From positions 9,894 to 73,893 of the forward strand of contig JAOBWO010000169.1 in the NCBI GenBank assembly GCA_025463415.1: a stretch of 64,000 bases of DNA, given 5' to 3'. A program made the translations under genes and the position numbers. The stretch is from Acidimicrobiales bacterium (GTDB taxonomy: Bacteria; Actinomycetota; Acidimicrobiia; Acidimicrobiales; Ilumatobacteraceae). How positions within the stretch are numbered: position 1 is the first letter of the stretch; every line of letters begins with the position of its first letter. Under the pieces are notes generated by a model. The model worked only from the letters and a program-made list of their open reading frames with translations. It did no database searches and was not told the DNA's origin. Below, one piece after another: positions 26,550-49,250 of the stretch.

Positions 26550-27146
26550 ATGACGGCCCCAGCTGTGTCCCGTGCGGAGCGAGTCCGCGAGCAGGTGCTC
26601 GACGCCACAGTCGAGCTCGTTGCCGCGGTCGGGGTCGAGCGGCTGTCGATCGACGAGGTGGCCAATCGGTCCGGCGTCGCCAAGTCCACGATCTACCGCC
26701 ACTTCCCGAGCAAGCAGGTCCTCGTCGTCGAGGCCGTGCACGCCTGCACGTCCATCCCGATGGTGACCGACAGCGGCTCGTTGCGAGAGGACCTGATCTC
26801 CTGCTTCAGCGGGATGACCAAGGCGTCCTACGAAGGCCGCCTGGGCGACATGATGCTGTCGCTGATGGACGCCGCGCAGCGCGACCCGGAGCTCAACCGT
26901 CTGGTCCGCGCCCAGACCGATCAGAAGCGACGCTTCGCGACCGAGGTGCTGGAGCGAGCGATCGCACGCGGCGAGGTGCCGGCCGATCTCGACGTCGATC
27001 TCACGGTCACCCTGCTGTCCGGACCCCTCGTCTACACCAAGCTCGTCCGGCGCCTGCCGCTGACGAACGAGCTCATCGCCGCAGTGGTCGACAGCGTGCT
27101 CGCCGGCAGCGACGTCGGCGTCGCCGGAGGGCGCCGCACGACCTGA
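26550..27146 (+). CDS. TetR-family transcriptional regulator
   Basis: HTH is LSIDEVANRSGVAKSTIYRHFPSKQVLV. 198 aa. Confidence 0.9.
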   Translation: MTAPAVSRAERVREQVLDATVELVAAVGVERLSIDEVANRSGVAKSTIYRHFPSKQVLVVEAVHACTSIPMVTDSGSLREDLISCFSGMTKASYEGRLGDMMLSLMDAAQRDPELNRLVRAQTDQKRRFATEVLERAIARGEVPADLDVDLTVTLLSGPLVYTKLVRRLPLTNELIAAVVDSVLAGSDVGVAGGRRTT

Positions 27147-28067: not shown

Positions 28068-28759
28068 GCGTGCACTCCTCTGAGTGGTGATGTGCGAACC
28101 GGCGCGCCGAGCAGCGCGACGGCAGTCGAGACGAGATCAGCGGTGAGGTCCTGTTGCGACAGGCGCGGCGTGCCGCGGTGGCGGGACCACTCCCAGCCGG
28201 CGATGGTGCCGACCACCAACGTGAGCAACTGGTCGATGCGGCTGCGGCGAACGCCGTCGGGCAGATCCTGGAGCAGCGCGACGATGCGCTGCTCGGTCTC
28301 GAGGATGCTGTGCGCCGCGGGCAGGTGGGCAACGACGTCCCACGCCATCGTGTCCCACCGGGTGCGGGCGAGGAACCGGCCGTACCACCCGTCGGCTTCG
28401 GCGACGATCTCGACCAGTGGTGCGACGACGGCCGCGACGAGCGCGCGGAGGTCGTGGGGCCGGCCCTCGGCATCGAGCCCGGCGAGACGCAAGCGACGGC
28501 GCTCGTCGACCAGGCGCATGCGGGCTTCGTAGACCGCGATGACCAGACCCCTGCGGTCGCCGAAGTGGTACTGCGCCGCCGAGTGGTTGCGCTGTCCGGC
28601 GGCCGCGCTGACGTCGCGCAGGGACACGCCTTCGATCCCTCGCTCAGCGAACAGCCGCTCGGCGTGCTCGATGAGCGCTTGTCGCGCTGGTTCGCCCGAA
28701 CGTGCCACGCCGTGATCGTAAGACGATCGGCTTAGATTGTCAACGGCCGATTGCGGCAT
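28064..28759 (-). CDS. TetR-family transcriptional regulator
   Basis: HTH is VSLRDVSAAAGQRNHSAAQYHFGDRRGLV. Its stop overlaps the TauD start (ATGA at 28064-28067). The start is uncertain (28759 ATG, 28708 GTG or 28813). Confidence 0.8.
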   Translation of the reverse strand: MPQSAVDNLSRSSYDHGVARSGEPARQALIEHAERLFAERGIEGVSLRDVSAAAGQRNHSAAQYHFGDRRGLVIAVYEARMRLVDERRRLRLAGLDAEGRPHDLRALVAAVVAPLVEIVAEADGWYGRFLARTRWDTMAWDVVAHLPAAHSILETEQRIVALLQDLPDGVRRSRIDQLLTLVVGTIAGWEWSRHRGTPRLSQQDLTADLVSTAVALLGAPVRTSPLRGVHA

Positions 28760-28816
28760 CCACGAAGTGTGGCTACCCACCCTGGCGGCACGGAACACGT
28801 TCGGTACCATCACGGC

Positions 28817-29494
28817 GTGGCGATCCGTCTGCTGTTGGCAGAAGACAACGTGCTGTTGCGCGAGGGGTTGGCCCGTCTGTTCGCCCAGGCAGAGGACATC
28901 GACCTGATCGGAACGTGCGGTTCGTACGACGATCTCATCGCCCTCGTCGACGCCGAGTCACCCGATGTGGTGCTGACCGACATCCGCATGCCACCGACCT
29001 TCACCGACGAGGGCATCCAGGCGGCACGGTGGATGCGCGAGCACCACCCGCGAATCGGCGTGGTGGTGCTGTCGCAGTACGCGACGCCCGGCTACGCGCA
29101 TGCGCTGTTCGAGGATGGCTCCGACGGACGCGCCTACCTGCTGAAGGACCGTGTGGCCGATGTCGACGAGGTCCTGTTCGCGATCGAAGCGGTCGCCAAC
29201 GGTGGCTCGGTGGTGGACCCGAAGATCGTCGAGGAGCTGGTGTCGGCTCGGGCACGGAAGCCGCGCTCTCCGATCGATCAGCTGACGAACCGCGAACGCG
29301 AGATCCTGGCGGAGATCGCTTCGGGCAAGTCGAACATCGCGATCGCCAACACGCTGTTCCTCTCGGCACGCGCGATCGAGAAGCACTCGAACTCGATCTT
29401 CTCCAAGCTCGGCCTCTCGGAGGAACCCGATCTCAACCGTCGCGTCAAAGCCGTGCTGCTCTACCTCGCCGCCGAGCGAGGTGCTCCGAGATGA
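28817..29494 (+). CDS. NarL/LuxR-family response regulator
   Basis: REC is IRLLLAEDNVLLREGL...DVVLTDIRMPPTFTDEG...VVVLSQY. HTH is LTNREREILAEIASGKSNIAIANTLFLSARAIEKHSNSIFSKLG. GTG start at 28817. Confidence 0.9.
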   Translation: MAIRLLLAEDNVLLREGLARLFAQAEDIDLIGTCGSYDDLIALVDAESPDVVLTDIRMPPTFTDEGIQAARWMREHHPRIGVVVLSQYATPGYAHALFEDGSDGRAYLLKDRVADVDEVLFAIEAVANGGSVVDPKIVEELVSARARKPRSPIDQLTNREREILAEIASGKSNIAIANTLFLSARAIEKHSNSIFSKLGLSEEPDLNRRVKAVLLYLAAERGAPR

Positions 29495-29904
29495 GTGAGT
29501 CGCCGAACACCGTGTCCGGAAACGTCACCGTGCTCGTGGTCGATGATCAGGCGCCGTTCCGCGCGGCTGCTCGGGCCGTGGTCGATCGCCTGGCGGGGTT
29601 CGAGATCGTCGCCGAAGCGGAGTCCGGAGAGTCGGCGATCGAGATGGTCGACGCCCTGCATCCCCAGGTGATCCTGATGGACATCAACATGGGCGGCATC
29701 GACGGCATCGAGGCCACCACGCGGATCGCCGGCAAGCACCCGCAGACCATGATCGTGCTGCTGTCGACGTACGAGCTCGGTGATCTCCCGCCCAGCGCGC
29801 GCACGTCCGGCGCGTCGGCCTACGTCAACAAGGACGAGTTCGGCGGGCGGATCCTGCGCACGCTGTGGGAGAACGCAGGCGATCCCACCTTCCGCCCCGG
29901 CTGA
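29491..29904 (+). CDS. stand-alone receiver (CheY-like) protein
   Basis: VTVLVVDDQAPFR...QVILMDINMGGIDGIEAT...IVLLSTY. 137 aa with no output domain. ATGA overlap with the preceding regulator. Confidence 0.85.
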   Translation: MSESPNTVSGNVTVLVVDDQAPFRAAARAVVDRLAGFEIVAEAESGESAIEMVDALHPQVILMDINMGGIDGIEATTRIAGKHPQTMIVLLSTYELGDLPPSARTSGASAYVNKDEFGGRILRTLWENAGDPTFRPG

Positions 29905-29922: not shown

Positions 29923-32373
29923 CTACTCGGCGCGCAAGGCCTCGACGAGTGGAGTCCTCGCGGCGCGGAACCCCGGCCACAACGACATCGCTGGCACGAT
30001 CACGAGCACACCAACGACGGCCGCAGCGATCCACCGTCCTGGCAGCGCGGGACCGGAGGCGAGACCGACATCGCGGACGAGGAGGCCCCACGACCCGCGC
30101 CCGGCCACGATCCCGATCGGCACGCCGATCGCCACGGCGGTGATGGCGACGAGCATCGAGCGACACACGATCGAACCGATGACCTGCGTGCTCGTGAAGC
30201 CGAGGCTGCGCAGCACGGCGAGCTCTCGTCGTCGACGACGGACGCTCGTCACCAGTGCATGGCCGACTGCGGCAAGGGCGAGGGCAACGATCAGCCAGGC
30301 GACGATCCACGGCGACGAGGCCACGTGATCGAGGTTGCGCAGATCGTCCTGCCGCCCGGGCAGCACCACTGCCGAGCCGTAGGTCTTGACGAGGTGATCG
30401 ATCACCTCGGTTTGCGACATCGACCGGTTCGTGCGCACAACGAGGTACGGCGACCCGGCTGTGTCGATCCGGCTGCGAACCGCTTCGGTGACGATCACGC
30501 CGTTGCCGGGTCCGACGCTGGGATCGACTGCGCCGACGAGCACCTCGCCGACCACGGTGAACGGACCGACGGAGCCAGGCGCGCTGCCGTTCGAATCGTC
30601 GCCCAGGAGCGTGGGCAAGTCGGACAGCGTGGCACCGATGTGCAGGCCCATAGCGCGCATGGTGAGTGGGCCCATCGCGACCTCGTCGTCGGCGGTCGGA
30701 ATCCGGCCGCTGACGATCGTCGGTGCCATCGACCCACGTTGGGGCTGCAGGCTCACCGCCCAGAACGTGGGAACGCCGGTCAGCTGGAATGGCCCGCTGG
30801 CGGTGACGAGGGCGAGATCGGTCAGGTACGGATCCCGCTTCGCCGCCGCCACTCCTTCGACGACAGAGGCAGGATCCCCGACGGTGGCAACGGCGTAATC
30901 CCACGGCGCGCCGTATCGCGCCGAGTCCGCCTCGACGCGCTCCAGGCTGCCGACCATGATCGCCGCCGTCACGACGCTTGCGACGCCGACGGTGATGCCG
31001 ACCACGGCGATGACCAGGCCGCGCACGTAACCACGGATCCCGACCCGCAACGACGCGGAGCCGATGCTCGCGCTGAGCGCGCCCGATCGAGGACGTCGGC
31101 CCACTCTCGGGCGGTCGCGAACCGTGAAGGCAGTTGCCAGCGCCACCATCGCCGACAGGGCAATCACCAGGAGGGCGGCACCACCGAGCACCACGGTCGC
31201 ATCGAATCGGAAGCCTGGCTGGACCTCGGCCCGGCCCGCGATCCCGGTCGGGCCGCTCGACGACAGCACGAGCGCGCCGACGACCGACATCACCGTGGCT
31301 CCGATCACGACGGGCGAGAACCGGATCGCGGCCACGACGAACGGGAGCCGCCGCCCCGAGCCCATCGCCACCACGATCGCCCGGTCGCTGAGCTCGCGGC
31401 GGATCTGGCGGAGGAGCGTCTGGCCGACGAAGAGCAGGCCGGCCAGCAGCAGGATCACCGCGACCAGTTCGAACGAGTAGCCCTGGAGGGACGTGGAGCG
31501 CCGCAGCGCCGTGAACCGTGGCGAGTCCTCGTAGGCGGTCAGCAGCACGGCCCAACCCGGCAACGATCGAGCGAGATCCGCGCGCACGTCGTCGAGCGTG
31601 GATCCGGCCGCCAGTGTGAAGTTGGTCGTGACGAACGAGCTCGTCCCGGCGCCGTGCGCGACGTACCAGGCCCTGCTGACCATGATCCCGAACGCGGGCA
31701 ACGTCAGCTCGACGCCGGGAGGCCGGTCGAGCTGCGGCACGAGGTCGGACTCACTCCGCGTGATGCCCACCACCCGAACGGTCGTGTGGACGTCGCACCG
31801 GTCGTCACCCGTGGGGCTCGGCGCACAGGCATCGACCTCGAGCGAGTCACCGGTGCGGACGCCGAGGATCTCGGCCGCCCGTTCGGACATCGACACGGCT
31901 CCGGGATCTTCGGGATCGGGAACGTGGCCGCTGATGAAGTAGCCGTTGCCGATGACGCCATCCGTGTCGAGGAGTGTTCCCGCATCGGTCGTGCGCGTGC
32001 CCCCCTTGGCTCCGGTGACCGCGACCGTGGCTGACGCGTAGACGCGTCCCGAGACCTGATGCGGAGAGGTCTTCAGTGCGGCGAAGGCCGTCAGGTTGTT
32101 CGCCGGCGCGAAGCAATCGGTCGGGTCCACCTCCGGATCGACGCCCGGAGGGCATGTCTGCAGGGTGCTGTCCGGCAGCGGCAGTGCCGCGATTCGACGC
32201 GGGATCACGGTGTCGGCGCGCCGCGAGTACTCCCACGACGTGAGCACCGCCGTGCCGACCAGCCCGGCGAACACCGCGAGGAAGATCGTTGCCAGGCGCG
32301 ATCGGCGCAGGATCGAGCGCGCCCACAGCACCGCCGCAGGGTTGGCGCCAGGGTTCATGACGCGACCGCTCAC
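29923..32373 (-). CDS. ABC transporter permease with two FtsX domains (MacB-type fused permease)
   Basis: 816 aa. An N-terminal TM and large ectodomain are followed by FtsX-like 3-TM blocks twice. The C-terminus ...LRSLGFTSTQVIG...WPGFRAARTPLVEALRAE is typical. 4-nt overlap with the kinase gene stop. Confidence 0.85.
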   Translation of the reverse strand: MSGRVMNPGANPAAVLWARSILRRSRLATIFLAVFAGLVGTAVLTSWEYSRRADTVIPRRIAALPLPDSTLQTCPPGVDPEVDPTDCFAPANNLTAFAALKTSPHQVSGRVYASATVAVTGAKGGTRTTDAGTLLDTDGVIGNGYFISGHVPDPEDPGAVSMSERAAEILGVRTGDSLEVDACAPSPTGDDRCDVHTTVRVVGITRSESDLVPQLDRPPGVELTLPAFGIMVSRAWYVAHGAGTSSFVTTNFTLAAGSTLDDVRADLARSLPGWAVLLTAYEDSPRFTALRRSTSLQGYSFELVAVILLLAGLLFVGQTLLRQIRRELSDRAIVVAMGSGRRLPFVVAAIRFSPVVIGATVMSVVGALVLSSSGPTGIAGRAEVQPGFRFDATVVLGGAALLVIALSAMVALATAFTVRDRPRVGRRPRSGALSASIGSASLRVGIRGYVRGLVIAVVGITVGVASVVTAAIMVGSLERVEADSARYGAPWDYAVATVGDPASVVEGVAAAKRDPYLTDLALVTASGPFQLTGVPTFWAVSLQPQRGSMAPTIVSGRIPTADDEVAMGPLTMRAMGLHIGATLSDLPTLLGDDSNGSAPGSVGPFTVVGEVLVGAVDPSVGPGNGVIVTEAVRSRIDTAGSPYLVVRTNRSMSQTEVIDHLVKTYGSAVVLPGRQDDLRNLDHVASSPWIVAWLIVALALAAVGHALVTSVRRRRRELAVLRSLGFTSTQVIGSIVCRSMLVAITAVAIGVPIGIVAGRGSWGLLVRDVGLASGPALPGRWIAAAVVGVLVIVPAMSLWPGFRAARTPLVEALRAE

Positions 32374-34412
32374 GACAGCGGGATCTCGCCGTGGATGCTG
32401 GTGCCCGCTCCAGGGGCCGAGCGGACGGTCAGGTGACCGTGCACCGCACCCAGGCGGTCGGCCATGTTGACGAAGCCGTGGCCGCCGGCATCGAGCGGCC
32501 CGGGCGTGAAACCGGCGCCGTCGTCGGAGACGTCGAAAGTGAGCACGTTCCCGATCTCGCTGACGACGATCACGATCTCGGCATCGTCGCCGGCGTGCTT
32601 GCCGGCGTTCTGCATCGCCTCGAGGCAGCAGAAGTAGACGGTCGATTCGATCTCGGGCGTGTAGCGGCCGACACCGTCGGTCTCGACCGAGGTGTACAGC
32701 GCGGAGCGTCCGGCCGCCGCCGGCAACGCCTCGCGCAGGCCTCCCGACGAGAGCAGTGGCGGGAAGATGCCGTGGGCCAAAGCGCGCAGCTCCGCGATCG
32801 CGTCCTTGAGGTTGTCGCGGAGCTCCTCGATCACCTTCGTGGCCTCACCGGGATCGTCCTCGACGAGCTCTTCGGCGAGACGGAGCTTGACTGCCATCGC
32901 AACGAGGTGCTGCTGGGCGCCGTCGTGCAGGTTCCGCTCCAGCCGCCGCCGCTCGGCGTCGCCCGCGCTGACGATGCGCAGCCGTGATTGCTCGAGCTCG
33001 AGGTTGGTCTGTTGCAGCGCCTCGAGCGACGCCTGCAGCGCGGAGTCGAGCTGCACGTTGTGCAGCGCGAGGGCGACCTGGCGGGCGAGCTCGGTGAGGA
33101 CACGGTCGTCCTCGTCGTTGACGACACCGCTCGACGCATCGCGGGTCAGCACGACCAGCCCGAGCAACGCGCCGCCGTGCACGATGGGTGCCACCCTGGT
33201 GTTCGCACTGTTGTGCGGCGCCAGCTTCGGGATCCAGACGTCGAGCCATGTGCCACCCGAGACCCCGGCCCGTGCAACCACCTGCCGCTCCTTCACGCCG
33301 AGGACGACCGGCTCGGCGGTCCGGTGGGGAACGCCGGCCGCGAGCTCGTAGCGCCCGTCCGCGCCGGTGTAGATCTCAGCGGACACGAGCGACATCGATT
33401 TGCGCAGGGACTCCGTCAGCTGGAGCAACAGCTCGTCCAGTGGGATCGCGCGCGTCAATCGACTGCCCCACGTGCGAAGCGCATCGTCGGGCGCGGTGTT
33501 CTCGCCGTACACGAGCTGGTTGGCGGCGTCGGCGAGGCGGGTGCGCAGGGGCAGGAAGACCAGCGCGGCGATGAGCGCGGCCACCATCGAGAGGAGCAGG
33601 AGGGAACGCTCACTGCCGCGCAAGGAGTGGCCGTGAGCGACGACGACGGCGACGTACACAGCGATCACCAGTGCGGTGAGTCCCGCCAAGGCCACCGTCT
33701 GGGCCAGCAGCCGATCGACGCGCGCCACCATCCTCCCGTGGGTGCCGGCTGCCAGCGCGGCCGGGATGAGCACGGTGGCAGCGAGCACGACGGTCGCCGG
33801 GTGCGGGGGCCAGTCGACGAGCAACCGGAGCGCGACGACGGCCAACGACAGCTCGGCGACGACCGCGATCGCCCACGCGACCCAGTGCATCCGCCGTCGA
33901 TCGATGGCGTCGGTGGCGCGGTAGCGCCCGTTCGAGGCGGGGAGACCGATGCCCACGGCGGCGGCCCACAGCAGCACGAACACCCAGATGTCCGGACCGC
34001 TCCCGTCATGCGGAGTGATCAGGCCGCAAGTCCCGCCGACGACGTAGGCGACGAGGATCCACATCTGACGCGCCGTGGTCCCGATCCGTCCGTCCGGCAG
34101 CGTGACCACGAGGTGCAGCCCGACGGCCGGCAGCAGGCCGAGGACGAGGCGTGCGACCGTCGGATGGTCCCACGCATCGGCCAACATCGCGATGGCACCG
34201 AGACCGGCGCCCCCGAGCGCGATCGGGCCGAGTCGGTCGCTGCGCCGCCGGATGCCGACGAGCGTGCCGCCGGCGGCCCACGCCATCACGAGTGCGACGC
34301 GCACGACGTCGGTGGACCGAGCGGTGTCGAGGTGGATGATCGCGACGACTGCGGCGATCGACGCCAGCGGCGCGGTCAGCAGGCAGTACGCCGGGCGCAG
34401 TTCCGATGCCAA
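32370..34412 (-). CDS. multi-TM GAF-containing sensor histidine kinase (HisKA_3/NarX type)
   Basis: About 8 N-terminal TM segments and a GAF-like middle. H-box LERNLHDGAQQHLVAM, N-box YFCCLEAMQNAGKHA, G-box DDGAGF...GHGFVNMADRLGA. TTG start at 34410-34412, 1 nt after the ATPase stop. Confidence 0.85.
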   Translation of the reverse strand: MASELRPAYCLLTAPLASIAAVVAIIHLDTARSTDVVRVALVMAWAAGGTLVGIRRRSDRLGPIALGGAGLGAIAMLADAWDHPTVARLVLGLLPAVGLHLVVTLPDGRIGTTARQMWILVAYVVGGTCGLITPHDGSGPDIWVFVLLWAAAVGIGLPASNGRYRATDAIDRRRMHWVAWAIAVVAELSLAVVALRLLVDWPPHPATVVLAATVLIPAALAAGTHGRMVARVDRLLAQTVALAGLTALVIAVYVAVVVAHGHSLRGSERSLLLLSMVAALIAALVFLPLRTRLADAANQLVYGENTAPDDALRTWGSRLTRAIPLDELLLQLTESLRKSMSLVSAEIYTGADGRYELAAGVPHRTAEPVVLGVKERQVVARAGVSGGTWLDVWIPKLAPHNSANTRVAPIVHGGALLGLVVLTRDASSGVVNDEDDRVLTELARQVALALHNVQLDSALQASLEALQQTNLELEQSRLRIVSAGDAERRRLERNLHDGAQQHLVAMAVKLRLAEELVEDDPGEATKVIEELRDNLKDAIAELRALAHGIFPPLLSSGGLREALPAAAGRSALYTSVETDGVGRYTPEIESTVYFCCLEAMQNAGKHAGDDAEIVIVVSEIGNVLTFDVSDDGAGFTPGPLDAGGHGFVNMADRLGAVHGHLTVRSAPGAGTSIHGEIPLS

Positions 34413-34413
34413 C

Positions 34414-35142
34414 TCATTCGCTCGCGTTCACCGACACCGCGATGCCGGTGGCCCCGGCAGACCCATCGTCCACGACGCGTCCGTCGCGCATCCGCACGAG
34501 GCGCGACGCTGCATCGGCGACCGGCTGGTCGTGCGTGATCAACACGATCGTCTGACCGCTGTCGTCGTGGAGTCGACGGAACAGCTCGAGGATCTCGTCG
34601 CCGCCGTCCGAGTCCAGCGCACCGGTCGGTTCATCGGCCAGCAGCACCGTCGGACGGTTGGCGAGCGCACGCGCGATCGCGAGGCGCTGACGCTGCCCAC
34701 CCGACAGCGTGGTCGGCGCGGCCTTGGCCTTGTCGGGAAGGCCGAGCAGGTCGAGCAGGTCGCGTGCGCGGGTCTCGGCTGCCTTGCGCTTCACACCGGC
34801 GATGAGCGCAGGCATGACCACGTTCTCCTGAACGGTCATCCCCTCGAGCAGGTTGAAGAACTGGAAGACGATCCCGATGTGGGTGCGGCGCATCCGGGCG
34901 AGATCGTTGGCGTCCTTGCCGCGCAGCGACTCACCGGCCACGAAGACCTCGCCCTCGTCGGGCACGTCCAGCCCTGCGATCAGGTTGAGCAGCGTGCTCT
35001 TGCCACATCCGGACGGACCCATCACCGCGACGAACTCGCCGGCTGTGACCGTCAGATCGGCGCCGCGCAGCGCACGCACCGGCGCCACCTCGGCCTCGAA
35101 CGTGCGATACACAGCGCGCACCTCGACCGCTGTCTCCTTCAT
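34414..35142 (-). CDS. ABC transporter ATP-binding protein (MacB/LolD-like)
   Basis: Walker A GPSGCGKSTLLN, Q-loop FQFFNLL, signature LSGGQRQRLAIARAL, Walker B LLADEPTGALD. Start at MKETAVEV (ATG 35140-35142), with GGAG 8 nt upstream. Confidence 0.9.
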   Translation of the reverse strand: MKETAVEVRAVYRTFEAEVAPVRALRGADLTVTAGEFVAVMGPSGCGKSTLLNLIAGLDVPDEGEVFVAGESLRGKDANDLARMRRTHIGIVFQFFNLLEGMTVQENVVMPALIAGVKRKAAETRARDLLDLLGLPDKAKAAPTTLSGGQRQRLAIARALANRPTVLLADEPTGALDSDGGDEILELFRRLHDDSGQTIVLITHDQPVADAASRLVRMRDGRVVDDGSAGATGIAVSVNASE

Positions 35143-35281
35143 CGATTGCTCCACGGCAGTCTCCTCATCGCACGCACGTCCGGTCACGATCATCTCACCC
35201 TCTCTGCACCGTCTCGACAAGGGCGTTTCCCGCTCCGCTGAGGGAGGCTGGCACCACTCAGGGCCCGGATCATCCACCTGG

Positions 35282-36601
35282 TCACTCCAGCGGTCCGATG
35301 CGGTACGGCTGCACCGCGGTGTCGCGGCCCTTCACCATCTGCGCGTCGAGCCGCTCGTACGCGTCCGGCTTCACCGACAACGCGTCCCACGTCGCCTCGC
35401 TCAGCACCGACTGACCACTGGCCGCGAACTGCTGCAGACGTTGGCAGAGGTTCACGACGTCGCCGACCACGGTGTACTCGGCACGCTCCTCGGACCCCAG
35501 CAGGGCGGCGGCCACCTCCCCCGTCGACACTCCGATCCCGATCGGGAACGGTGGCAACCCGGCCTCGATCCACGAAGCGTTCACCGCGCTCTGGGCACGA
35601 TGCATCGCCGCGATCGCGGCGACCGCGCGATCAGCATGGTCGAGGCTGGGCACCGGCGCACCGAACACGGCCATCACCGCATCGCCGACGTACTGCATCA
35701 CGGTGCCGCCCTCGCCGATGATCGCCCCGTTCATCTCCGCGCGGTGCGTGTTCAACTGACGGGCGAGCGACGACAGGTCGGCGTGCTCCGAGATCGTCGA
35801 GTACCCGCGGATGTCGCTCATCACCACGGTGACGGTCAGCATCTCGGACTCGCCCAGCTCGCGGCCGGACGCCAACAGCTTCTCCGCCAGTCCACCCGGC
35901 AGCAGGCGGGACAACGACTCACCCTGCTCCTCACGGCTGACGATCGCGTCGTGCAGCATGCGCAGTCGCCGTAGGGCTCCCTGCGCCCCGGCCGACGCGC
36001 TGGTGGCCAGGCTCGCGAACAGCAGCTCCACCTCGTGGTTCACCGCGGCCGGCGTGGCCTTGCGCGCCACGGCGATCGCCTTGATCGGCTTGCCCTGGGC
36101 GAGCATGGCCAACAGTGCCTCTTCGTCCGCGGACAGGTCGCCCTTGCGGACGGCCGGCCGCACCATCGCGTCGACGATCGAGGGGTCGAGCACCGACCCG
36201 CCCGTCGCCACCGCCCGGATCGCGGCGACGAGTTGGTCGCCTTCGGCGATGTGGTCCTTGAGCAGATAGGCGTACCCCGCGGCGCCTTCGCTGAGCAGCG
36301 CGATCGCGTAGTCGGGATCATCGAACTGGGAGAGGATCACGATGCCGGTGCCGGGATGTCGCTTGCGGATCTCCTTGCAGCCGTCGATGCCCTCCGACTG
36401 GAACGAGGGCGGCATGCGGATGTCGGACACAACGACGTTCGGCGCCAGGGTGGACGCACCGGCCACGAGGGTGTCGTAGTCGTCGGCCACACCGACGATC
36501 TCGATGTCGGGGTTGCGGGCCAACATCGCGCGCACGCCTTCGCGCACGATGATGTTGTCGTCGGCGAGGAAGACCGTGATGCCGCCGCTGGACTGGTTCA
36601 C
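35282..36601 (-). CDS. response regulator fused to a LuxR-type HTH and a class III nucleotidyl cyclase domain
   Basis: REC is ITVFLADDNIIVREG...VVVSDIRMPPSFQSEG...IVILSQF. The HTH-like segment is LSADEEALLAMLAQGKPIKAIAVARKATPAAVNHEVELLFASL. The cyclase is VTVVMSDIRGYS...VMQYVGDAVMAVFGAP...EYTVVGDVVNLCQRL. GTG start overlaps the upstream stop (GTGA). Confidence 0.85.
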   Translation of the reverse strand: MNQSSGGITVFLADDNIIVREGVRAMLARNPDIEIVGVADDYDTLVAGASTLAPNVVVSDIRMPPSFQSEGIDGCKEIRKRHPGTGIVILSQFDDPDYAIALLSEGAAGYAYLLKDHIAEGDQLVAAIRAVATGGSVLDPSIVDAMVRPAVRKGDLSADEEALLAMLAQGKPIKAIAVARKATPAAVNHEVELLFASLATSASAGAQGALRRLRMLHDAIVSREEQGESLSRLLPGGLAEKLLASGRELGESEMLTVTVVMSDIRGYSTISEHADLSSLARQLNTHRAEMNGAIIGEGGTVMQYVGDAVMAVFGAPVPSLDHADRAVAAIAAMHRAQSAVNASWIEAGLPPFPIGIGVSTGEVAAALLGSEERAEYTVVGDVVNLCQRLQQFAASGQSVLSEATWDALSVKPDAYERLDAQMVKGRDTAVQPYRIGPLE

Positions 36602-37617
36602 CGGTCGATCACGTTCGCGTGCTCACGACGGTGATCGGCCGACAGCCGACGCAGAGCCTCGAGATCCACCGCGGCGGCTGACGCCACGGCGACCTTGCAG
36701 GCAGTGACGGCTCGCAGCGTCGCCGTTCGCCGGCCACCTTCGAGGATCGCCCGCTCTCCGGCCACCGTGCCGGGTCCGAGCTCGGCCAGCTCGCGTCCGT
36801 CCACCTCGAGACCGAGCACTCCGTCGAGGAGGACGAACATCTCGTCGCCCTCGTCACCCTGGTCGACCAACGTCTCGCCGGCTCTGATCCTGCGCACCGT
36901 CGGCTTGGCGCTCCCTCGCATGATCGCGGTGGACAGCTCTCGTTCCAATGCGGTCTCGACGGCCGTCACCAGTGCCGGCGAATCGAGGTCGCCCCAGGGC
37001 GTGTGATCACCGAACGCATCCTTGTACCAGGTCTTGAAATCGATCAGCCCGGTCTTGGCCAGCAGTTGTCCGTCCGTGTCGTACACCCAGTGGCGAGGGA
37101 ATGGACTGGCACCGACGAGCTTGCCCTCGGCGGTGCCGTCGGCGCGGATGGTCAACGCCAGCGTCGACCACGCGATCGGCGCGTGGTACTGGATGAACGG
37201 TGGGCGGCGCACGGTGCGCGGTGCCGGGACGCCGGTCCGTCCACCGGCAGTCTGCAGGAAGCGCACCCATCCCGGCCCGAACTCGGGGTCGGCCTGCTTG
37301 TCGGGAAGCGGCACCGCGGCGATCGAGATGTCCCGACCGAGGCTCAGCGTCGTCGAGCCGAGCAGCCCGCCGCCGGCGTATCCAGCATCGGTGATCCTGC
37401 CGTCGTCGTCGACGTCGATCCATGCATGGAGTTGGTTGGCGAACCGGAACCGATCGGCGACACGCAGTTCCTCCAACGTCGCACCCGGGGTGTCGATCCG
37501 GTCCGGCGGCGCGACGTCGAAGTGGGCCAGGCCCGATCTGAAGGGCAGCTTGGCCAGCCCGGCGATGGCTTCCGACGGGATCCACGAGAGTGCGGTGATC
37601 GATGCAGTGCGGCGCAT
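36598..37617 (-). CDS. cyclic-nucleotide-binding (CAP_ED) protein with uncharacterised ~220-aa N-terminal domain
   Basis: C-terminus RIRAGETLVDQGDEGDEMFVLLDGVLGLEVDGRELAELGPGTVAGERAILEGGRRTATLRAVT carries the phosphate-binding cassette GE...RTA. The N-terminal domain was not recognised. No HTH. Confidence 0.8.
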   Translation of the reverse strand: MRRTASITALSWIPSEAIAGLAKLPFRSGLAHFDVAPPDRIDTPGATLEELRVADRFRFANQLHAWIDVDDDGRITDAGYAGGGLLGSTTLSLGRDISIAAVPLPDKQADPEFGPGWVRFLQTAGGRTGVPAPRTVRRPPFIQYHAPIAWSTLALTIRADGTAEGKLVGASPFPRHWVYDTDGQLLAKTGLIDFKTWYKDAFGDHTPWGDLDSPALVTAVETALERELSTAIMRGSAKPTVRRIRAGETLVDQGDEGDEMFVLLDGVLGLEVDGRELAELGPGTVAGERAILEGGRRTATLRAVTACKVAVASAAAVDLEALRRLSADHRREHANVIDR

Positions 37618-37748
37618 GCAGCCAATGATCGACCGAGTGGGGCGAACTCGACAGGGTGAAGCCTGGCTTCGCGAAGTGTGGCTGTCACCACCCTCGCGAC
37701 CGCGCCGTCACCATTGTGGTGGCGATTCGCCACGGCCAAGATGCAGAG

Positions 37749-40109
37749 GTGCCCGCGCAGTCTCCCGTCGATCTGTGGAGCCGAACCGATCTGCGCGCCC
37801 GATGGAAGTCGTTGGTCGTGCTCGGCATCCTGGCCGGTTTGACGGCAGGGCTGGCGACGGCAGCGTTCGATGGCGCACAGCGCACGGCGACCGCGTTGCA
37901 TCGACTCGAAGCACGCAACAACGCCAGCGACGCTGTGGTGTTCGCCTCGCAGACATCCACCGACAGGCCGTCCTGGACCACGCTGGCCAATCGACCAGAG
38001 GTGGCTCGGATCGCCCGGTGGCGGTTGGCGTTCGGGCTCATCGGTGATTCGTACACGGTGATGTTCGGGCCGAGTGACGACGTGTGGTTGCAACAGGTCG
38101 ACAAGCCGATCGTCGTCGCCGGGAGGATGTTCGATCCGACCAAGCCGAACGAGGTGGTGGTTGACGACCAGGCGGGCGCGGACGCTCCGCCGCTGGGATC
38201 CACCGTGCAGTTCGACACGTTCGGTCCGTACGACCCGTCGGTCGGTGACGTTCCCGGATCGGGACCATCCGTGCAACTGACGGTCGTCGGCGTGGTCCAC
38301 ACGTCGCTCAGCTGGGAGTTCACCAGCGGCGCGTTCGTGTCGCCGGGGTTCTTCGCCGAGTACGGCGAACAGATCGAGTTCGCCGAGAACGGGTTCGTGC
38401 AACTGCGCAACGGCGGCGCGGACATGACGGCCCTGCGTCGTGATGCCAGCCGCGACCTCTTCGCCGGCGTGCCCGTGCTCGATCTGCGCACGACGGCGCG
38501 CCGCGTCACGGCGACGACCGACGTCGAGAAGGCGATGCTGCTGCTCCTGGCGGCGATCGTGGCGTTGGCCGGACTCGTCTTCGTCGGCCAGGCCATCGCC
38601 CGCTCCGCAGCGACGATCGGATCCGATGTGCCGACGCTGCGCGCGCTCGGGATGACACGACGCGAGATGCTGGCTGCAGCGCTTCGCCCGCACGCGCTCA
38701 CGGCGTGCGTCGCTGCACTCGTGCTGGCACTCACGACCGGCATCGCATCTCGATGGTTCCCCGTCGGGCTGGCCGCCCAGGTCGACCCGGCGCGCGGCAT
38801 CCGGATCAACGTCGGACTGATCCTGGTGGCAATGGTCGCGCTCGCCGTGTTGATCACGGCTCAAGCCGCGCTGTCCAGCTGGCTCGCTGCGGCACCGACG
38901 GATGCGAACCGCCCGACACGCGTCTCGCTGCTGACCCGGGTGGGGCTGGTGCGGCCCCTCGCCGTGGGCGTCGGTGTGCGGATGGCGTTGGAGGGGAACC
39001 GCCGCACCGGGCGGGGTGGCTCTCGCTCGGCCCTGGTCGGAGCGGTCGCCGCCATCGCAGGCATCGTCGCGATCATCACGCTCAACCATGGGCTCGACGA
39101 CTCGCTCAGCCACCCACAGGTAGCGGGCGTGGCGTGGGACGTCACCGTCACGCCCGACGCCACGGACACGAGCCTCGAGGGCGTCGATCCGAAGGTGGTC
39201 GACGCTGTCATCGACCAGCCCGGCCTTGCCGCGACGGGCACGATCGGACGCGTGACCGCGCAGATCGGCGACGCGGGCGTGCCGACCTTCACAGTCATCC
39301 CGAGGGGCACGGGTCCACAGATCCAGCTCGTCACCCTGCAGGGCCGGCCACCCGAGGCTGATGACCAGATCGAACTCGGACCGTCGACGGCACGTGACCT
39401 CGGCGTCGGCATCGGCGACACCATCCAGCTCGAGGACGGCCGCGCCGCGCGCGTCGTGGGCCTCGGCCTCTTCCCGTCGGACGTTCACGCCCAGTTCGAC
39501 GAGGGCGCCTGGCTGTCCAACAGCCGATGGTTCGAGCTGCTGAGCCGACAGGACGCCCAGGAGGGTGCGGCGTTCGCGATCGCGGTGCGCTTCGCCGACC
39601 GCGACCACATCGCCGAGCAGACCCAGACGCTCGCGACCGCGCTCGCGCCGGTCGCCTCCGACATCGCGCCGGCCGAGGTGCCGTACGAGCTGAGCAACCT
39701 GCACAACGTGCGTCGCCTGCCCACACTGCTCGCGATCTTCCTGACCGCGCTCGGCGTCGTCGCCGTCGGCCATGCCCTGTTCACCACGGTCCGCCGGCGG
39801 CGCAAGGACTTCGCCGTGATGAGCGCGCTGGGCGTCACCAGAACCGGATCGCGCATCGTGCTGGCCGTGCAGGGATCGACGGTCGCGGTGGTCGGGCTGC
39901 TGTTCGGCGTTCCGCTCGGGTTGCTGGCCGGCCGAGCCGGTTGGCAGGCGATCACCGATCGCGTGCCGCTCACGTTCCGCTCGCCGATCACGTTCGTCGC
40001 GATCCTGCTGATCCTGCCGATCGCGATCGTCGTCGCAAACGCGCTGGCGGTGCTGCCCGGCCATCGCGCCGCCAAGCTCGAACCGGCGCTCATCCTCCGC
40101 TCGGAGTGA
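37749..40109 (+). CDS. ABC transporter permease with two FtsX domains (second copy, no adjacent ATPase)
   Basis: Same architecture as 29923-32373: ...TLRALGMTRREML... and ...MSALGVTRTGSRIVL...LPGHRAAKLEPALILRSE. Start taken at GTG 37749 (VPAQSPVDLWSR); the track ORF starts at 37656. Confidence 0.8.
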   Translation: MPAQSPVDLWSRTDLRARWKSLVVLGILAGLTAGLATAAFDGAQRTATALHRLEARNNASDAVVFASQTSTDRPSWTTLANRPEVARIARWRLAFGLIGDSYTVMFGPSDDVWLQQVDKPIVVAGRMFDPTKPNEVVVDDQAGADAPPLGSTVQFDTFGPYDPSVGDVPGSGPSVQLTVVGVVHTSLSWEFTSGAFVSPGFFAEYGEQIEFAENGFVQLRNGGADMTALRRDASRDLFAGVPVLDLRTTARRVTATTDVEKAMLLLLAAIVALAGLVFVGQAIARSAATIGSDVPTLRALGMTRREMLAAALRPHALTACVAALVLALTTGIASRWFPVGLAAQVDPARGIRINVGLILVAMVALAVLITAQAALSSWLAAAPTDANRPTRVSLLTRVGLVRPLAVGVGVRMALEGNRRTGRGGSRSALVGAVAAIAGIVAIITLNHGLDDSLSHPQVAGVAWDVTVTPDATDTSLEGVDPKVVDAVIDQPGLAATGTIGRVTAQIGDAGVPTFTVIPRGTGPQIQLVTLQGRPPEADDQIELGPSTARDLGVGIGDTIQLEDGRAARVVGLGLFPSDVHAQFDEGAWLSNSRWFELLSRQDAQEGAAFAIAVRFADRDHIAEQTQTLATALAPVASDIAPAEVPYELSNLHNVRRLPTLLAIFLTALGVVAVGHALFTTVRRRRKDFAVMSALGVTRTGSRIVLAVQGSTVAVVGLLFGVPLGLLAGRAGWQAITDRVPLTFRSPITFVAILLILPIAIVVANALAVLPGHRAAKLEPALILRSE

Positions 40110-40124
40110 CCGGCAGCGCGACGC

Positions 40125-40697
40125 TCAGCGGACGAACTGGTCCACGTGGTCGGCGCCGAGGCCGACGTCGGTGTAGTGCCGGCGAGCCAGAGCCAGCTTG
40201 GTGTGCGCATCCTCGTAGCCGATCGGCACGCCGTACGGGTCGACGTAGACGAGCCCGCCGGTGACGTGGAAGAGCGTGATCATCTCGCTCACGTCATCGG
40301 GCACGATCAGCGTGTGCACCTCGCCGGGCGACTCGTAGGCGTAGGTGCCGGTCTCGGCCACCCAGTCGTGCTCGAGGTAGAACCACCGTCCGCGCAAGAC
40401 ATGCGCATGCACGGGACCCGCGTGGCGGTGCCTGCTGAGCACGCCGGAGCGCCGGACCCTGAGCAGGTTGACGTAGTAACCCTGCGACGCCGACAGCAGC
40501 AGCGGCCGGAACGAGACGTGCTCGGATTGCGGCACCCACAACCGCTCGTCGACGTCGTCGAGCAAGCCGGGCACGATGACGTCGGTGGACACATCCGGTG
40601 AGGGCGGCAGTTGGTACGGCATTCGCGCCGTTGCTTCATCTTGCGCAGCAGGCACACCCACGCGCTCTGGCGTGGTCTCTGTCGACGGGTTGGTCAT
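40125..40697 (-). CDS. cupin, 2,4'-dihydroxyacetophenone dioxygenase (DAD)-like family
   Basis: WVPQSEHVSFRPLLLSASQGYYVNLLRVRRSGVLSRHRHAGPVHAHVLRGRWFYLEHDW...GEVHTL. ATG at 40695-40697, 7 nt after the upstream stop. Confidence 0.8.
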   Translation of the reverse strand: MTNPSTETTPERVGVPAAQDEATARMPYQLPPSPDVSTDVIVPGLLDDVDERLWVPQSEHVSFRPLLLSASQGYYVNLLRVRRSGVLSRHRHAGPVHAHVLRGRWFYLEHDWVAETGTYAYESPGEVHTLIVPDDVSEMITLFHVTGGLVYVDPYGVPIGYEDAHTKLALARRHYTDVGLGADHVDQFVR

Positions 40698-40704
40698 CAC
40701 CCCA

Positions 40705-43269
40705 TCATCGCGGTTGCGCCGGCCCACTGCGGCGCCGCCGACCGAGCAGCACTCCAGCCGCTGCCGCGATCACGAGACCGGCCGCGAGGATGATGATGCT
40801 CTGCAGGCCGACACCATCGTCGGGGGCTGATGATCGGGACGCACTGGTTCCGTCCGGGATCGTCAGGTCGCCGGCGGGCAGGGTCGTGGAGAACGACAGG
40901 AACGGGGCGTCGGTCGCGGAAGCCTGGGCCCAGAACTCGGCGGGTTGGATCGTGCCGATGACACGCGGGGCATGCCCATCGGCGATGCCGATCAGCACGA
41001 CGGTCGCCAGCGAGGTCGGCGGCGGCACCGTCAGCTCGACCGTTCCGTCCGCGCCGGGCGTCACCGTGTAGCCGTACGACTGATCCTGGTCGGGCGCCGG
41101 GTAGATCACCTGGGCGTAGACCTGAGCGTCGGGGATCTGGACGTTGTCGGCGTCGTGCAGGTCGATCGTCGCCGTGAACGCCGGCGGGCCGGTGTAGTCG
41201 GTGCGCGGCCGGCGGGGCAGGCTGCACCCGAACCTCGGCTTCTTCAGGCACTGCTCCTGATCGCCGTAACCCGGGTGGGCGGTGGTGCCGACCGTCTCGC
41301 CGGGGTCGAGGTCGAAGTTGCCGTCGGCGTTGTCGAAGAACCCGGAGGTGATGAAGAGCTGGTCGATCGTGTCGTAGCCCTCCACGATCTCGCCGCGGCC
41401 CCCGAATGCGGCCTTCAGCGCCTGATACAGGTCATCGACGTCGAACACGTGACCGGCGGACAGCTCTTTGACGCTGTGGAAGCCGGAGATCGCCGCCCAG
41501 ATCTCCGGCAGCGTGACATCGAACGGTTGTCCCGCCGGGTCGGGCTTCTTCGGTCGACCCTCGCGGATCGTGATCGAGAGATCCTTGTAGGAGAGGCCCT
41601 TCGGCACGACGAGGACGAACAGCCCCTCACCGCCGGATCCGACATCGGCAGGGATCGTCGTGCCGTAGCTGCCATCGAGGATCTGGCCGCCTGTGCCGTA
41701 GAACGCTGCGCCGGCGACGGTGCCGTAGCTGGCGCCCTCGGCAGTCGTGTTGCGGAAGTGGCCGACGATCAACCGTCCCAGCGTCGGATCGGTCACCTCC
41801 GTGTAGCCGGTGACCTTGAACGTGCGCGGCGCTCTCGGCTCGACGGGCGCAGGAGTGATGCTCAGCCGATCCAACCGGACGAGCAGGCTGGCCACGGAGA
41901 GCTCCTCCTGCACCCACGCCTGGTGCGGTTCGGACAGATCCAACCTGCCGCCCTGCCAGCGGTAGAGCTCGGGATCCTCACGATCGACGACGTACTTGTT
42001 GACCATCGAGGACCAGAACTCGGCGAAGCCCTCCGTCCACGAGTCACTGCTCGACGCGTTCGCGTACCCGGCGTGGTTGACGTCAGCAACCCGATCGGGC
42101 AGACCATTGAACGCGCTCGCCAGCACGAAGTGGCCGAACTCGTGGAACTCGCGGTTGTCCGGCCGGTTGGCGCTGTTGAGCCCGCTGTCCCTCGGCGGGA
42201 TCGCGATGTAGGGACGGTCGACGGTGACGGCACCGTCGGACCGACTGCCCTGGAAGAAGGTGCCCGACGTCGCGGTGCATCCCAACGCCGCCGAATCGCA
42301 CCACGCGTCGACCTGCAGCGGCAGCCCGTAGCCGATCGAGATCCCGAGCTGGTCCGCCAGCTCCCACGCTTGATGAATGCCCTGGTAGATCTGCACCACG
42401 GCCGGCCAGTCCGTGATCGGAGCAACCTTGCTGGTGTAGCTCCCCGGGATCCCACGCATGTCGAAGTCGAACCGGCAGTCGCCGTCGTCGGGGATCAGGA
42501 ACGGCTCGGTGTTCAGGATCGGGCCCTTCTGCCGGTAGCCGACGATGAATCGCTGCGGTGAGTGCGTCTGCTCCTCACTGAACAGTGAGACCCGCACCTT
42601 GTCGGTCCGTGGGTCGAAGACGCCACCGGCGGGATCGTCCCCGATCTGGGCGAACGAGTACGACCCGTCGGCCAACGTGGAGGTGTCCAGCTCCAGCCCA
42701 CCCGCCGTCACGTGGATGTGGATGTCGGCAACGGGGTCACCGAAGGCATCGATGACGTTGCCCATGATGCTGCAGGCGGGTGCGTGGGCGTCCAGCGTCG
42801 AGTCGGTCGAGCTGCTCGATCCACTGGTCGCGCCACCGGTCGAGCCGCCGGACCCGCCGGATCCGCCACCGGGTTCGAACACGGTGCAATCCACCGATTG
42901 GGCGTTGCCGAACGAGCTGATCGATCCGCCCTGGGCGGCGAGCCTGGCGCCTGCCGCGGCGCACACCTCGGAGGGCTTCTCGAAGGGACCGGCCGAGAAG
43001 TCGGTTGAGTACCCGAACGTTCCGCCTGTTCCGTCGGACACCAAGATGCCGCCGTTCGCGTCGGGCGGGTTGTTGAAGATGATCAACGCATCGTCCTTCA
43101 CGCCGCCAGACGTCGTGCCGTGCCCGGTGATGTGGATCAGGTACTGCGGGCTCGGGAACGGTCGATCGGGATCGACGGTGCCCGAGGTGGCGAGCGAGGT
43201 GGTGGGTGACACGACGACCGCCGCAAGCGCACCGATCACGATCCAGGTGTGCAGCGGGCGTGGCCTCAC
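40705..43269 (-). CDS. 854-aa secreted, C-terminally membrane-anchored protein with HEFGH zinc-metalloprotease motif
   Basis: Domains in order:
- signal peptide MRPRPLHTWIVIGALAAVVVSPTTSLA
- Gly/Ser linker
- prealbumin-like segment GNVIDAFGDPVADIHIHV...DGSYSF
- HEFGH (nt 42130-42144) followed 33 residues later by WTEGFAEFW (candidate third ligand Glu)
- C-terminal TM IIILAAGLVIAAAAGVLLG plus RRRR
GTG start overlaps the upstream stop. Confidence 0.8.
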   Translation of the reverse strand: MRPRPLHTWIVIGALAAVVVSPTTSLATSGTVDPDRPFPSPQYLIHITGHGTTSGGVKDDALIIFNNPPDANGGILVSDGTGGTFGYSTDFSAGPFEKPSEVCAAAGARLAAQGGSISSFGNAQSVDCTVFEPGGGSGGSGGSTGGATSGSSSSTDSTLDAHAPACSIMGNVIDAFGDPVADIHIHVTAGGLELDTSTLADGSYSFAQIGDDPAGGVFDPRTDKVRVSLFSEEQTHSPQRFIVGYRQKGPILNTEPFLIPDDGDCRFDFDMRGIPGSYTSKVAPITDWPAVVQIYQGIHQAWELADQLGISIGYGLPLQVDAWCDSAALGCTATSGTFFQGSRSDGAVTVDRPYIAIPPRDSGLNSANRPDNREFHEFGHFVLASAFNGLPDRVADVNHAGYANASSSDSWTEGFAEFWSSMVNKYVVDREDPELYRWQGGRLDLSEPHQAWVQEELSVASLLVRLDRLSITPAPVEPRAPRTFKVTGYTEVTDPTLGRLIVGHFRNTTAEGASYGTVAGAAFYGTGGQILDGSYGTTIPADVGSGGEGLFVLVVPKGLSYKDLSITIREGRPKKPDPAGQPFDVTLPEIWAAISGFHSVKELSAGHVFDVDDLYQALKAAFGGRGEIVEGYDTIDQLFITSGFFDNADGNFDLDPGETVGTTAHPGYGDQEQCLKKPRFGCSLPRRPRTDYTGPPAFTATIDLHDADNVQIPDAQVYAQVIYPAPDQDQSYGYTVTPGADGTVELTVPPPTSLATVVLIGIADGHAPRVIGTIQPAEFWAQASATDAPFLSFSTTLPAGDLTIPDGTSASRSSAPDDGVGLQSIIILAAGLVIAAAAGVLLGRRRRSGPAQPR

Positions 43270-49135: not shown

Positions 49136-49250
49136 GCGCGGCGATGCTAACCCCGTTGGATCGGGGCCTGGACCGGACCGCGTCGTCGTGGACAGGGGCG
49201 GAACCCGACCGTCGGACTCCCGTCGCACCCGGACCGCTACCGTCGTGGGC

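Follow-up and report, generated by a model that had tools for sequence, protein, structure and literature searches.

A conserved gene cluster of Acidimicrobiia that probably joins a two-component system to a cyclic nucleotide and its own receptor, with a variable set of FtsX-type ABC genes beside it

We analyzed a cluster of signalling and transport genes in a 64,000-nucleotide stretch of DNA, hereafter the window (G+C around 69%), from an Acidimicrobiales bacterium of the Ilumatobacteraceae (assembly GCA_025463415.1, contig JAOBWO010000169.1, positions 9,894 to 73,893). The cluster is built around a gene for a receiver (REC) fused to a class III nucleotide cyclase, called here the cyclase regulator. 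The proteins of the window have their nearest matches in metagenome-assembled genomes named Ilumatobacteraceae. We propose that the cluster specifies a conserved branched pathway leading from a two-component system to a cyclic nucleotide, a reading that we favour as probable, with some reserve. A first-pass annotation made from the letters had reported six of the genes, and the open reading frames and Pfam confirmed all six at their positions and with their domains; it had overlooked two receivers, named here REC-GerE and solo REC. The features are as follows (positions in the window, strand, evidence):

28751 to 29494, plus: REC-GerE, a NarL/LuxR-type response regulator (Pfam Response_reg and GerE); the true start is probably between 28751 and about 28823
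29491 to 29904, plus: solo REC, a single-domain receiver (Pfam Response_reg, E 3e-21)
29923 to 32373, minus: duplicated FtsX permease 1, 816 amino acids (aa) (Pfam FtsX at aa 690-808)
32370 to 34412, minus: sensor histidine kinase with about 10 transmembrane (TM) helices, GAF, HisKA_3 and HATPase_c (Pfam, AlphaFold2 (AF2) model)
34414 to 35154, minus: ABC ATPase of MacB/LolD/FtsE type (Pfam ABC_tran, E 1e-37), starting at ATG 35142 or GTG 35154
35192 to 35220, minus: candidate internal promoter, TTGTCG, 17 nt, TGAGAT (pattern match only)
35282 to 36601, minus: cyclase regulator, with REC (Asp59), a degenerate LuxR-type helix-turn-helix (HTH), a helical linker resembling a cyclase transducer element (CTE) and a class III cyclase domain (Pfam Guanylate_cyc; Pfam, PDB profile, paralogy)
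36598 to 37617, minus: putative cyclic-nucleotide receptor, with an N-terminal all-beta domain of about 190 aa and a C-terminal cyclic-nucleotide-binding (CNB) domain (Pfam cNMP_binding at aa 242-316)
37618 to 37748, no strand: divergent intergenic region between the CNB gene and permease 2 (four-sequence alignment, inverted-repeat search)
37749 to 40109, plus: duplicated FtsX permease 2, 786 aa, or 817 aa from GTG 37656 (Pfam FtsX)

The genes of the minus strand are closely packed. The GTGA overlap between the CNB and cyclase regulator genes, the corresponding 4-nt GTGA overlap between the kinase and permease 1 genes, and the 1-nt spacing between the ATPase and kinase genes were all read directly in the sequence, as the first-pass annotation had given them. 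Its description of a single tightly packed operon stands as far as these junctions go; the cyclase regulator and ATPase genes are, however, separated by 127-139 nt, and the gap holds the candidate promoter, so that a single operon is not certain and two transcription units are possible. The minus-strand genes may thus form two tightly coupled blocks, CNB-cyclase and ATPase-kinase-permease. A TTGnnn-17-T(G/C)nAAT/TGAGAT pattern in this gap is common to the window and to four related loci (L004, L005, L006 and L014, the last from the complete genome of Aquihabitans sp. McL0605), the gap being otherwise not conserved; a consensus promoter scan did not call the TTGTCG-17-TGAGAT candidate. The alternative GTG start of the ATPase at 35154 is preceded by GAGGAG, 6 nt upstream.

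On the plus strand, the solo REC gene overlaps the REC-GerE gene by ATGA, and the pair converges on permease 1, with 18 nt between the two stop codons. Alignment of the divergent region between the CNB gene and permease 2 revealed a block, CGACAGGGTG (37649-37658), which is invariant in the window, L004, L008 and L006 and extends across the alternative GTG start (37656) of permease 2. The same region contains a partly conserved CACCA-N3-TGGTG inverted repeat at about 37707-37719; these conserved elements may represent an operator or promoter element. Consensus scans for promoters and terminators over 28-41 kb gave nothing above shuffle expectation and no terminator between the convergent genes, and an Rfam gathering scan of the whole window found no match, hence no known riboswitch or leader in the gaps.

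In the AF2 model of the kinase (predicted local distance difference test score, pLDDT, 80), the region aa 6-302 forms about ten TM helices, with connecting loops of 3-9 residues and no extracytoplasmic domain. It is followed by a GAF domain, by a long DesK-like dimerization and histidine-phosphotransfer domain carrying His496, and by the catalytic and ATP-binding domain; the only fold matches returned by Foldseek are DesK-like cores. For the TM region itself we found no Foldseek match, no Pfam match at E up to 10, and no similarity to FtsX or to other ABC transmembrane domains. The H, N and G boxes (H496, N602, D630-G634 and G644-G646) are invariant in 31 kinase sequences. The modeled architecture points to sensing within the membrane and/or in the cytoplasm. 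Inspection of the GAF domain by eye showed no NKFDE-type motif, and a role of this domain in feedback by a cyclic nucleoside monophosphate (cNMP), which we considered, is left as speculative.

Three receiver proteins are encoded beside this single kinase, each with a complete set of phospho-acceptor residues: D13, D14, D59, S90 and K114 of the cyclase regulator are invariant, and the equivalent positions are present in REC-GerE and solo REC. Residues 8-201 of the cyclase regulator align with the whole of REC-GerE, whose gene is 6 kb distant, at 41% identity (E 2e-48), and the two proteins have an MPPxFxxEGI insertion in common. The cyclase-family profile also aligns aa 8-199 with full-length VraR, NarL, DevR and DesR in the PDB; ChrA is likewise among the solved relatives of the receiver, and DesK/DesR and VraR are the closest solved two-component relatives. 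HisKA_3 kinases pair with NarL-type receivers, and because the cyclase regulator is a paralogue of its NarL-type neighbour, we infer that the one kinase feeds all three receivers. The HTH assigned to the cyclase regulator in the first-pass annotation is real but degenerate, and it is the 41% identity to REC-GerE, not Pfam, that reveals it: Pfam finds no HTH in the protein, and none in its middle region even at E up to 10. Since His/Glu/Glu/Ser stand in place of the basic residues of its recognition helix, this HTH is probably structural, its DNA binding having been lost.

A helical CTE-like segment precedes the catalytic domain of the cyclase. The metal-binding Asp residues D262 and D306 and the transition-state residues N383 and R387 are invariant in 15 cyclase sequences and align with those of Cya2. 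The closest solved cyclase domains (130 bits) are those of Cya2, a guanylate cyclase of Synechocystis (PDB 2w01) that also has a CTE-like segment before its catalytic domain, and of the adenylate cyclase engineered from it (6fht). The two specificity positions, Gln302 and Thr376, are invariant in the cyclase family. In canonical cyclases a Lys/Asp (or Thr) pair denotes ATP and a Glu/Cys-Gly-Ser pair GTP; the residues found here form neither canonical pair. The first position is Glu in Cya2 and Lys in 6fht, whereas it is Gln here, and the second is Gly in Cya2 and Thr here. Thr376 fits the class IIIb adenylate cyclases, and Gln302 fits neither pair. The closest analogue of this cyclase branch, and the precedent for switching it on through a receiver, is CyaC of Spirulina and Anabaena, in which phosphotransfer to a receiver controls a class III adenylate cyclase, according to the work of Kasahara and Ohmori (1999) as cited in PMC1183210. 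CyaC, however, holds its own kinase and receivers in one polypeptide, whereas the cyclase described here belongs to a separate NarL-like regulator with a degenerate HTH and the Gln/Thr positions.

The CNB domain of the putative receptor is well defined (Pfam cNMP_binding, E 3e-16) and matches those of PKG, PKA and HCN in the PDB. In its phosphate-binding cassette, GERAILEGGRRTATLRA, residues G287, E288, R289, R297 and T300 are invariant and T298 is nearly so. The AF2 model of the protein (pLDDT 73) shows an all-beta N-terminal domain of about 190 aa, for which no Pfam match was found at E up to 10 and no Foldseek relative in the PDB or BFVD, where only CNB domains or noise were returned. The family of this domain has 1191 representatives, almost always fused to a CNB domain. 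Rare architectures include two CNB stretches (P0373), a CNB with an Mpo1-like domain (P0377) and a position after TrkA_N (P0450), and some proteins with a length of about 230-250 aa may be fragments or consist of this domain only.

Two other genes accompany the CNB gene in relatives. A metallo-beta-lactamase (MBL)-fold protein (Pfam Lactamase_B_2; nearest solved relative RNase Z) is encoded next to it in 28 of 86 related loci, for example at 7986-8816 in L050, 7986-8858 in L003 and 9129-9887 in L005; in L005 and L008 this gene separates the CNB gene from the cyclase gene. The protein is a candidate cNMP phosphodiesterase of the module; no homologue of it was found in the 64-kb window. In many of the 43 related loci used below for partner counts, a gene for a flavin adenine dinucleotide (FAD) amine-oxidase-like protein adjoins the CNB or MBL gene; a homologue 45% identical lies in the window at 5473-6945 (plus), 30 kb from the cluster.

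The conservation of the cluster was then evaluated with the cyclase regulator as anchor. A scan of one genome per species gave 80 loci, each at least 66% identical to it over the full length, and eight window proteins were placed on the related loci by tblastn. Partners were counted in the 43 species-level loci with at least 4 kb of upstream and at least 9 kb of downstream flank; gene order and median identities, measured against the window, come from 36 loci. The CNB gene accompanies the cyclase regulator gene in 38 of the 43 loci and the ATPase gene lies directly downstream of it in 37, while an orthologue of the window kinase is present in 36, solo REC in 41 and REC-GerE in 40. Reciprocal look-ups starting from three kinase homologues (56-57% identity) all reached the same module, with the full set in two cases and, in the third, the kinase, both regulators and a row of FtsX genes within its flank. 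The gene linkage is thus old and far beyond chance. It recurs in dozens of species-level genomes well beyond the source genome, so that the outcome named in the first-pass annotation as refuting its reading, a lack of linkage elsewhere, was not observed. Median identities to the window are 79% for the ATPase, 70% for the cyclase regulator (66-96% across the species-level loci), 62% for REC-GerE, 60% for solo REC, 58% for the CNB protein, 56% for the kinase and 28-29% for the permeases. These data support the view that the kinase, the cyclase regulator and the CNB protein behave as one module. They do not bear out the cyclase as the sole output of the operon, as had been thought, for the NarL-type transcription factor and the solo receiver, both in the window, are equally conserved partners. 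On two long contigs (L001, 4424-19789; L002, 2898-17325) the str/S10 region, which is usually contiguous, is broken up by the whole module, with fusA (EF-G) on one side and tuf (EF-Tu)-rpsJ on the other.

The signalling genes also occur apart from the transporter genes. The cyclase regulator is found in seven loci from metagenome-assembled genomes (MAGs) with the label Dormibacterota or Chloroflexota, most of which also have the CNB protein, REC-GerE and solo REC within their flanks; no linked ATPase or FtsX gene was found within these flanks by tblastn. In one of them (L050) the gene for a 698-aa polytopic GAF-HisKA_3 kinase comes directly after the cyclase gene; alignment of this kinase with the window kinase family extends over 606 columns and takes in the membrane region (hhalign probability 100, E 4e-67). 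Four further loci with these labels show diverged kinase matches after the cyclase gene. Because these MAGs have the core and an orthologous kinase but no ABC genes beside them, the ancestral unit would be the kinase, the three receivers and the CNB protein, the ATPase and permeases having been added in the Acidimicrobiia. The ABC genes thus appear as a lineage-specific and highly variable add-on to a conserved signalling unit.

Within this add-on the ATPase is the constant part and the most conserved gene of the module. Its Walker A (GPSGCGKST), signature (LSGGQRQR), Walker B (LLADEPTGALD) and H-loop (ITHD) motifs are intact, and its best NCBIfam matches are MacB, LolD, DevA and FtsE. A second ABC ATPase of the window (11561-12160, plus), 36% identical to it, belongs to another transporter locus. 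The two permeases share only 28% identity and have the same 1+3 / 1+3 pattern of TM helices by hydropathy, with two extracytoplasmic domains (ECDs) of about 230-260 aa at aa 46-302 and 473-689. Pfam detects FtsX only in the C-terminal unit; the N-terminal half of one permease nevertheless aligns with the C-terminal half of the other in BLAST, and this internal duplication, together with the hydropathy profile, substantiates the double-FtsX permeases reported in the first-pass annotation. A nucleotide-binding domain (NBD) of the MacB/LolD/FtsE group and a 4-TM FtsX unit with an ECD between TM1 and TM2 correspond to the type VII (MacB/FtsX) systems; the ECDs gave no MacB_PCD match in Pfam at E up to 5. 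In their duplicated FtsX units, their size of about 800 aa, their many paralogues and the frequent lack of an ATPase gene of their own, these proteins resemble the ADOP permeases (TIGR03434). Membership of that family was rejected, the match being weak, C-terminal and of 26-37 bits against a cutoff of 622.

The permease genes are the variable part. Permease 2 is divergently transcribed and has no ATPase gene adjacent to it, as had been reported. Counted within 10 kb, the number of permeases per locus ranges from 0 to 4, and L007, L062 and L067 have the ATPase and kinase genes and no permease. At a threshold of at least 35% identity, 110 full-length linked permeases fell into 39 clusters, the largest of which spans 14 loci; permease 1 has orthologues at this threshold in 3 loci only, and permease 2 in 8 related loci, where it is usually divergent from the CNB gene. 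The ATPase-kinase-permease order of the window was found in only 5 of 36 loci, and in 12 of 36 one or two permease genes lie between the ATPase and the kinase. Since the number, placement and lineage of the permeases vary among loci, the position of the kinase between the ATPase and permease genes is a local accident of order, and no permease lineage travels with the kinase. An extreme expansion is seen in L086 (699-8907), where four or five FtsX genes in a row stand directly upstream of the kinase.

The gene content, the intact domains, the paralogy and the conserved linkage are the observations from which we infer the following phosphotransfer, binding and regulatory steps. The polytopic GAF kinase would autophosphorylate at His496 and pass its phosphate to three NarL-type receivers, namely the transcription factor REC-GerE, solo REC, which probably acts as a phosphate sink or modulator, and the REC-pseudoHTH-cyclase. 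Phosphorylation would cause the cyclase regulator to dimerise and so bring two class III cyclase domains together to make a cyclic nucleotide. This would be read by the product of the translationally coupled upstream gene, through its CNB domain and its uncharacterised beta domain. The Acidimicrobiia module would have gained a gene for a MacB-type ATPase, always between the cyclase and kinase genes, which a changing set of duplicated-FtsX permeases would share, the membrane and GAF domains of the kinase remaining the primary, ancestral sensor. The first-pass annotation had drawn a chain from transporter to kinase, cyclase regulator, cNMP and CNB protein. From the kinase onwards this predicted chain is well supported; the step from transporter to kinase is not established, and we retain it in a weaker form, in which the ATPase-permease complexes are coupled to the kinase as an accessory input and possibly also as a target. 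Such a coupling, the likeliest role of the ABC part but one that we put forward tentatively and with some doubt, is suggested by the fixed place of the ATPase gene in the signalling operon, by its 1-nt spacing from the kinase gene in the window, by its near 1:1 co-occurrence with the kinase (37 versus 36 of 43) and by its exceptional conservation (79% versus 56%). It would be accessory, and not the sole stimulus, because the permeases turn over and an ABC-free core exists. The complexes are probably also a target of the REC-GerE regulator. A precedent for an ABC transporter that reports from its ATPase side to a histidine kinase is PstSCAB-PhoU-PhoR; this system differs in that the transporter is an importer, PhoU serves as adaptor and the kinase has a PAS domain, and its homology to the present module is confined to the generic NBD and kinase cores.

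Several observations weigh against this proposal. The cyclase does not have a canonical specificity pair, and therefore its cyclic nucleotide product, and even its activity, are unproven. The candidate internal promoter, itself a pattern match, weakens the single-operon picture. Five loci labelled Acidimicrobiia or Actinomycetota (L065, L066, L080, L081 and L083, the flanks of L066 and L081 being short) have the cyclase and both regulators with no kinase or ATPase detected nearby, and partners of the kinase could be encoded elsewhere. Against an ABC input stand the complete turnover of the permeases (39 clusters), the three loci that combine ATPase and kinase with no permease within 10 kb, and the signalling core of the MAGs labelled as another phylum, which is present without ABC genes. 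A stronger version of the ABC input, in which a type VII ABC 'mechanotransmitter', with one highly conserved ATPase for many fast-diversifying duplicated-FtsX permeases, is the exchangeable antenna of the kinase, so that the activity of the permease complex is relayed through the polytopic GAF kinase and the receiver-cyclase to a cyclic nucleotide and a receptor with a beta-domain effector, we judge to be unlikely; in that case the nucleotide may be other than cAMP, given the Gln/Thr specificity residues.

The rival explanation that survives best follows the detoxification logic of ChrSA-HrtBA and HssRS-HrtAB: the kinase itself would sense a membrane-borne compound, REC-GerE would induce the exporter, the transporter would be an output only, and the cyclase branch would run in parallel. 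Within the Actinomycetota, ChrSA-HrtBA is the closest analogue of the module. The heme modules ChrSA-HrtBA and HrrSA of Corynebacteria (PMC5812335) also combine a polytopic, loop-less HisKA_3-type kinase and a NarL-type regulator with an adjacent FtsX-type ABC exporter, and intramembrane heme sensing by the six-helix kinase has been proposed for ChrSA (PMC5812335). To this shared pattern may be added the presence of ChrA among the solved receiver relatives, the conservation of REC-GerE as a canonical transcription factor, the many permease genes on separate, divergent or convergent units, and the kinase found without ABC genes in the MAGs labelled as another phylum. However, HrtB is a single FtsX unit, its ATPase and permease form an operon that is regulated in its own right, and the heme modules have no GAF domain, solo REC, cyclase regulator or CNB protein. 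In the present module the ATPase gene does not form a separately inducible unit: in 37 of 43 loci it is part of the signalling operon and immediately precedes the kinase. Its conservation exceeds that of any signalling gene, an uncommon feature in the NBD of an exporter with a specific substrate, and the retention of the cyclase and CNB genes would be left unexplained. We regard this logic as a somewhat less likely reading than that of an accessory input.

The first-pass annotation had compared the kinase gene between the ATPase and permease genes to the Bce modules of Firmicutes (BceRS-BceAB). These likewise encode an FtsX-fold ABC system with a two-component system and have an ATPase of the MacB/LolD group, so that signalling from transporter to kinase is a plausible analogy; in the window the kinase and ABC genes are adjacent and translationally coupled, and the ATPase belongs to the MacB/Bce superfamily. 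Taken literally, the comparison would make transport by the permease the only stimulus and the kinase a passive transducer. Bce modules use HisKA kinases with the OmpR-type BceR, whereas a HisKA_3 kinase and NarL-type regulators are found here. The kinase has about 10 TM helices and a GAF domain and the permeases about 8 TM helices and two ECDs, whereas the Bce kinase has only two TM helices and a short linker and lacks a sensor domain, and the Bce permease has 10 TM helices, with a single large ECD placed between TM7 and TM8 (PMC11009047). The tight co-evolution of Bce transporter and kinase described in the same work is also absent, the permeases of 39 clusters being interchangeable and the kinase orthologous throughout, and in related modules the kinase is present without any transporter. 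The module further differs in its cyclase/cNMP branch and in its Acidimicrobiia host. By permease topology, kinase architecture, regulator family and co-evolution the module would not be a Bce module; flux sensing, established for BceAB-BceS (PMC4513084, PMC10314905), is an improbable account of it.

A third possibility is that the ATPase docks on the 10-helix membrane domain of the kinase, forming a non-canonical ABC-kinase machine to which the FtsX genes are unrelated neighbours. The almost 1:1 co-occurrence of ATPase and kinase genes, and the three loci L007, L062 and L067 with both genes and no permease within 10 kb, could be read in this way. However, the cytoplasmic loops of 3-9 residues in the AF2 model offer no element resembling a coupling helix, the membrane domain has no similarity to FtsX or to any other ABC transmembrane domain, and at least one FtsX gene lies nearby in all 37 ATPase loci except L007, L012, L062 and L067. 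This machine is highly improbable; the TM domain of the kinase was judged an unlikely membrane partner of the ATPase on account of its short loops and missing coupling helix. Hardly credible is a Pycsar-like anti-phage system in which a (pyrimidine) cyclic nucleotide made by the cyclase activates a CNB effector: although the cyclase domain matches PycC models (best 71 bits, E 2e-20), the CNB domain matches the CNB parts of effector models, cyclase and CNB genes are adjacent in the same layout and the specificity residues are non-canonical, these matches reflect generic class III cyclase and CNB similarity that Pfam and PDB relatives equal or exceed, a receiver and a dedicated kinase control the cyclase, the CNB protein has no TIR or TM effector domain, and the vertical inheritance (66-96% identity) and stable positions (between fusA and tuf in L001 and L002) are unlike those of defence islands. 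The PADLOC matches (PycC, CNB) are at the level of domains, and the defence reading was rejected on distribution and architecture.

Beside REC-GerE lie a TetR gene (28064-28813, minus), a TauD/TfdA dioxygenase gene (27147-28067, minus) and a second TetR gene (26550-27146, plus); a sigma-70-like hexamer pair is found near REC-GerE at 28743-28715 (minus). Downstream of permease 2 are genes for a ChrR-type cupin protein (40125-40727, minus) and an 854-aa CarboxypepD_reg protein (40705-43269, minus), followed further on by a DUF6777 protein (43266-45359, minus) and an 1140-aa regulator with AAA_22 and BTAD domains (46079-49501, minus).

The first-pass annotation had not recognised the cluster as a described system, and a search of the available literature on the gene combination, on receiver-cyclases in Actinobacteria and on Ilumatobacter cyclases agrees, giving no account of the module. 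All its parts come from known families; it is their conserved assembly that is new, and with it the retention of a pseudo-HTH in a cyclase regulator, a private CNB receptor with an unfamiliar domain, and a layout of constant ATPase and variable permeases. The Acidimicrobiia are abundant in soil, freshwater and marine samples and are rarely cultured, and to our knowledge their signalling is essentially unstudied. The module is among their most conserved signalling units, its cyclase regulator keeping at least 66% identity from one family to another and even in MAGs that carry the label of a different phylum. The N-terminal domain of the receptor, with its approximately 1200 representative sequences, and the MBL-fold neighbour in relatives are targets for the discovery of function. 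If the ABC part is indeed an input, the logic of a transporter acting as sensor would extend beyond the Bce modules of Firmicutes, in a form where the ATPase is constant and the permease swappable. The pathway would stand as a clear example in nature of a two-component system with a cyclic nucleotide as dedicated output and a private receptor to read it, two signalling currencies being joined in one gene cluster.

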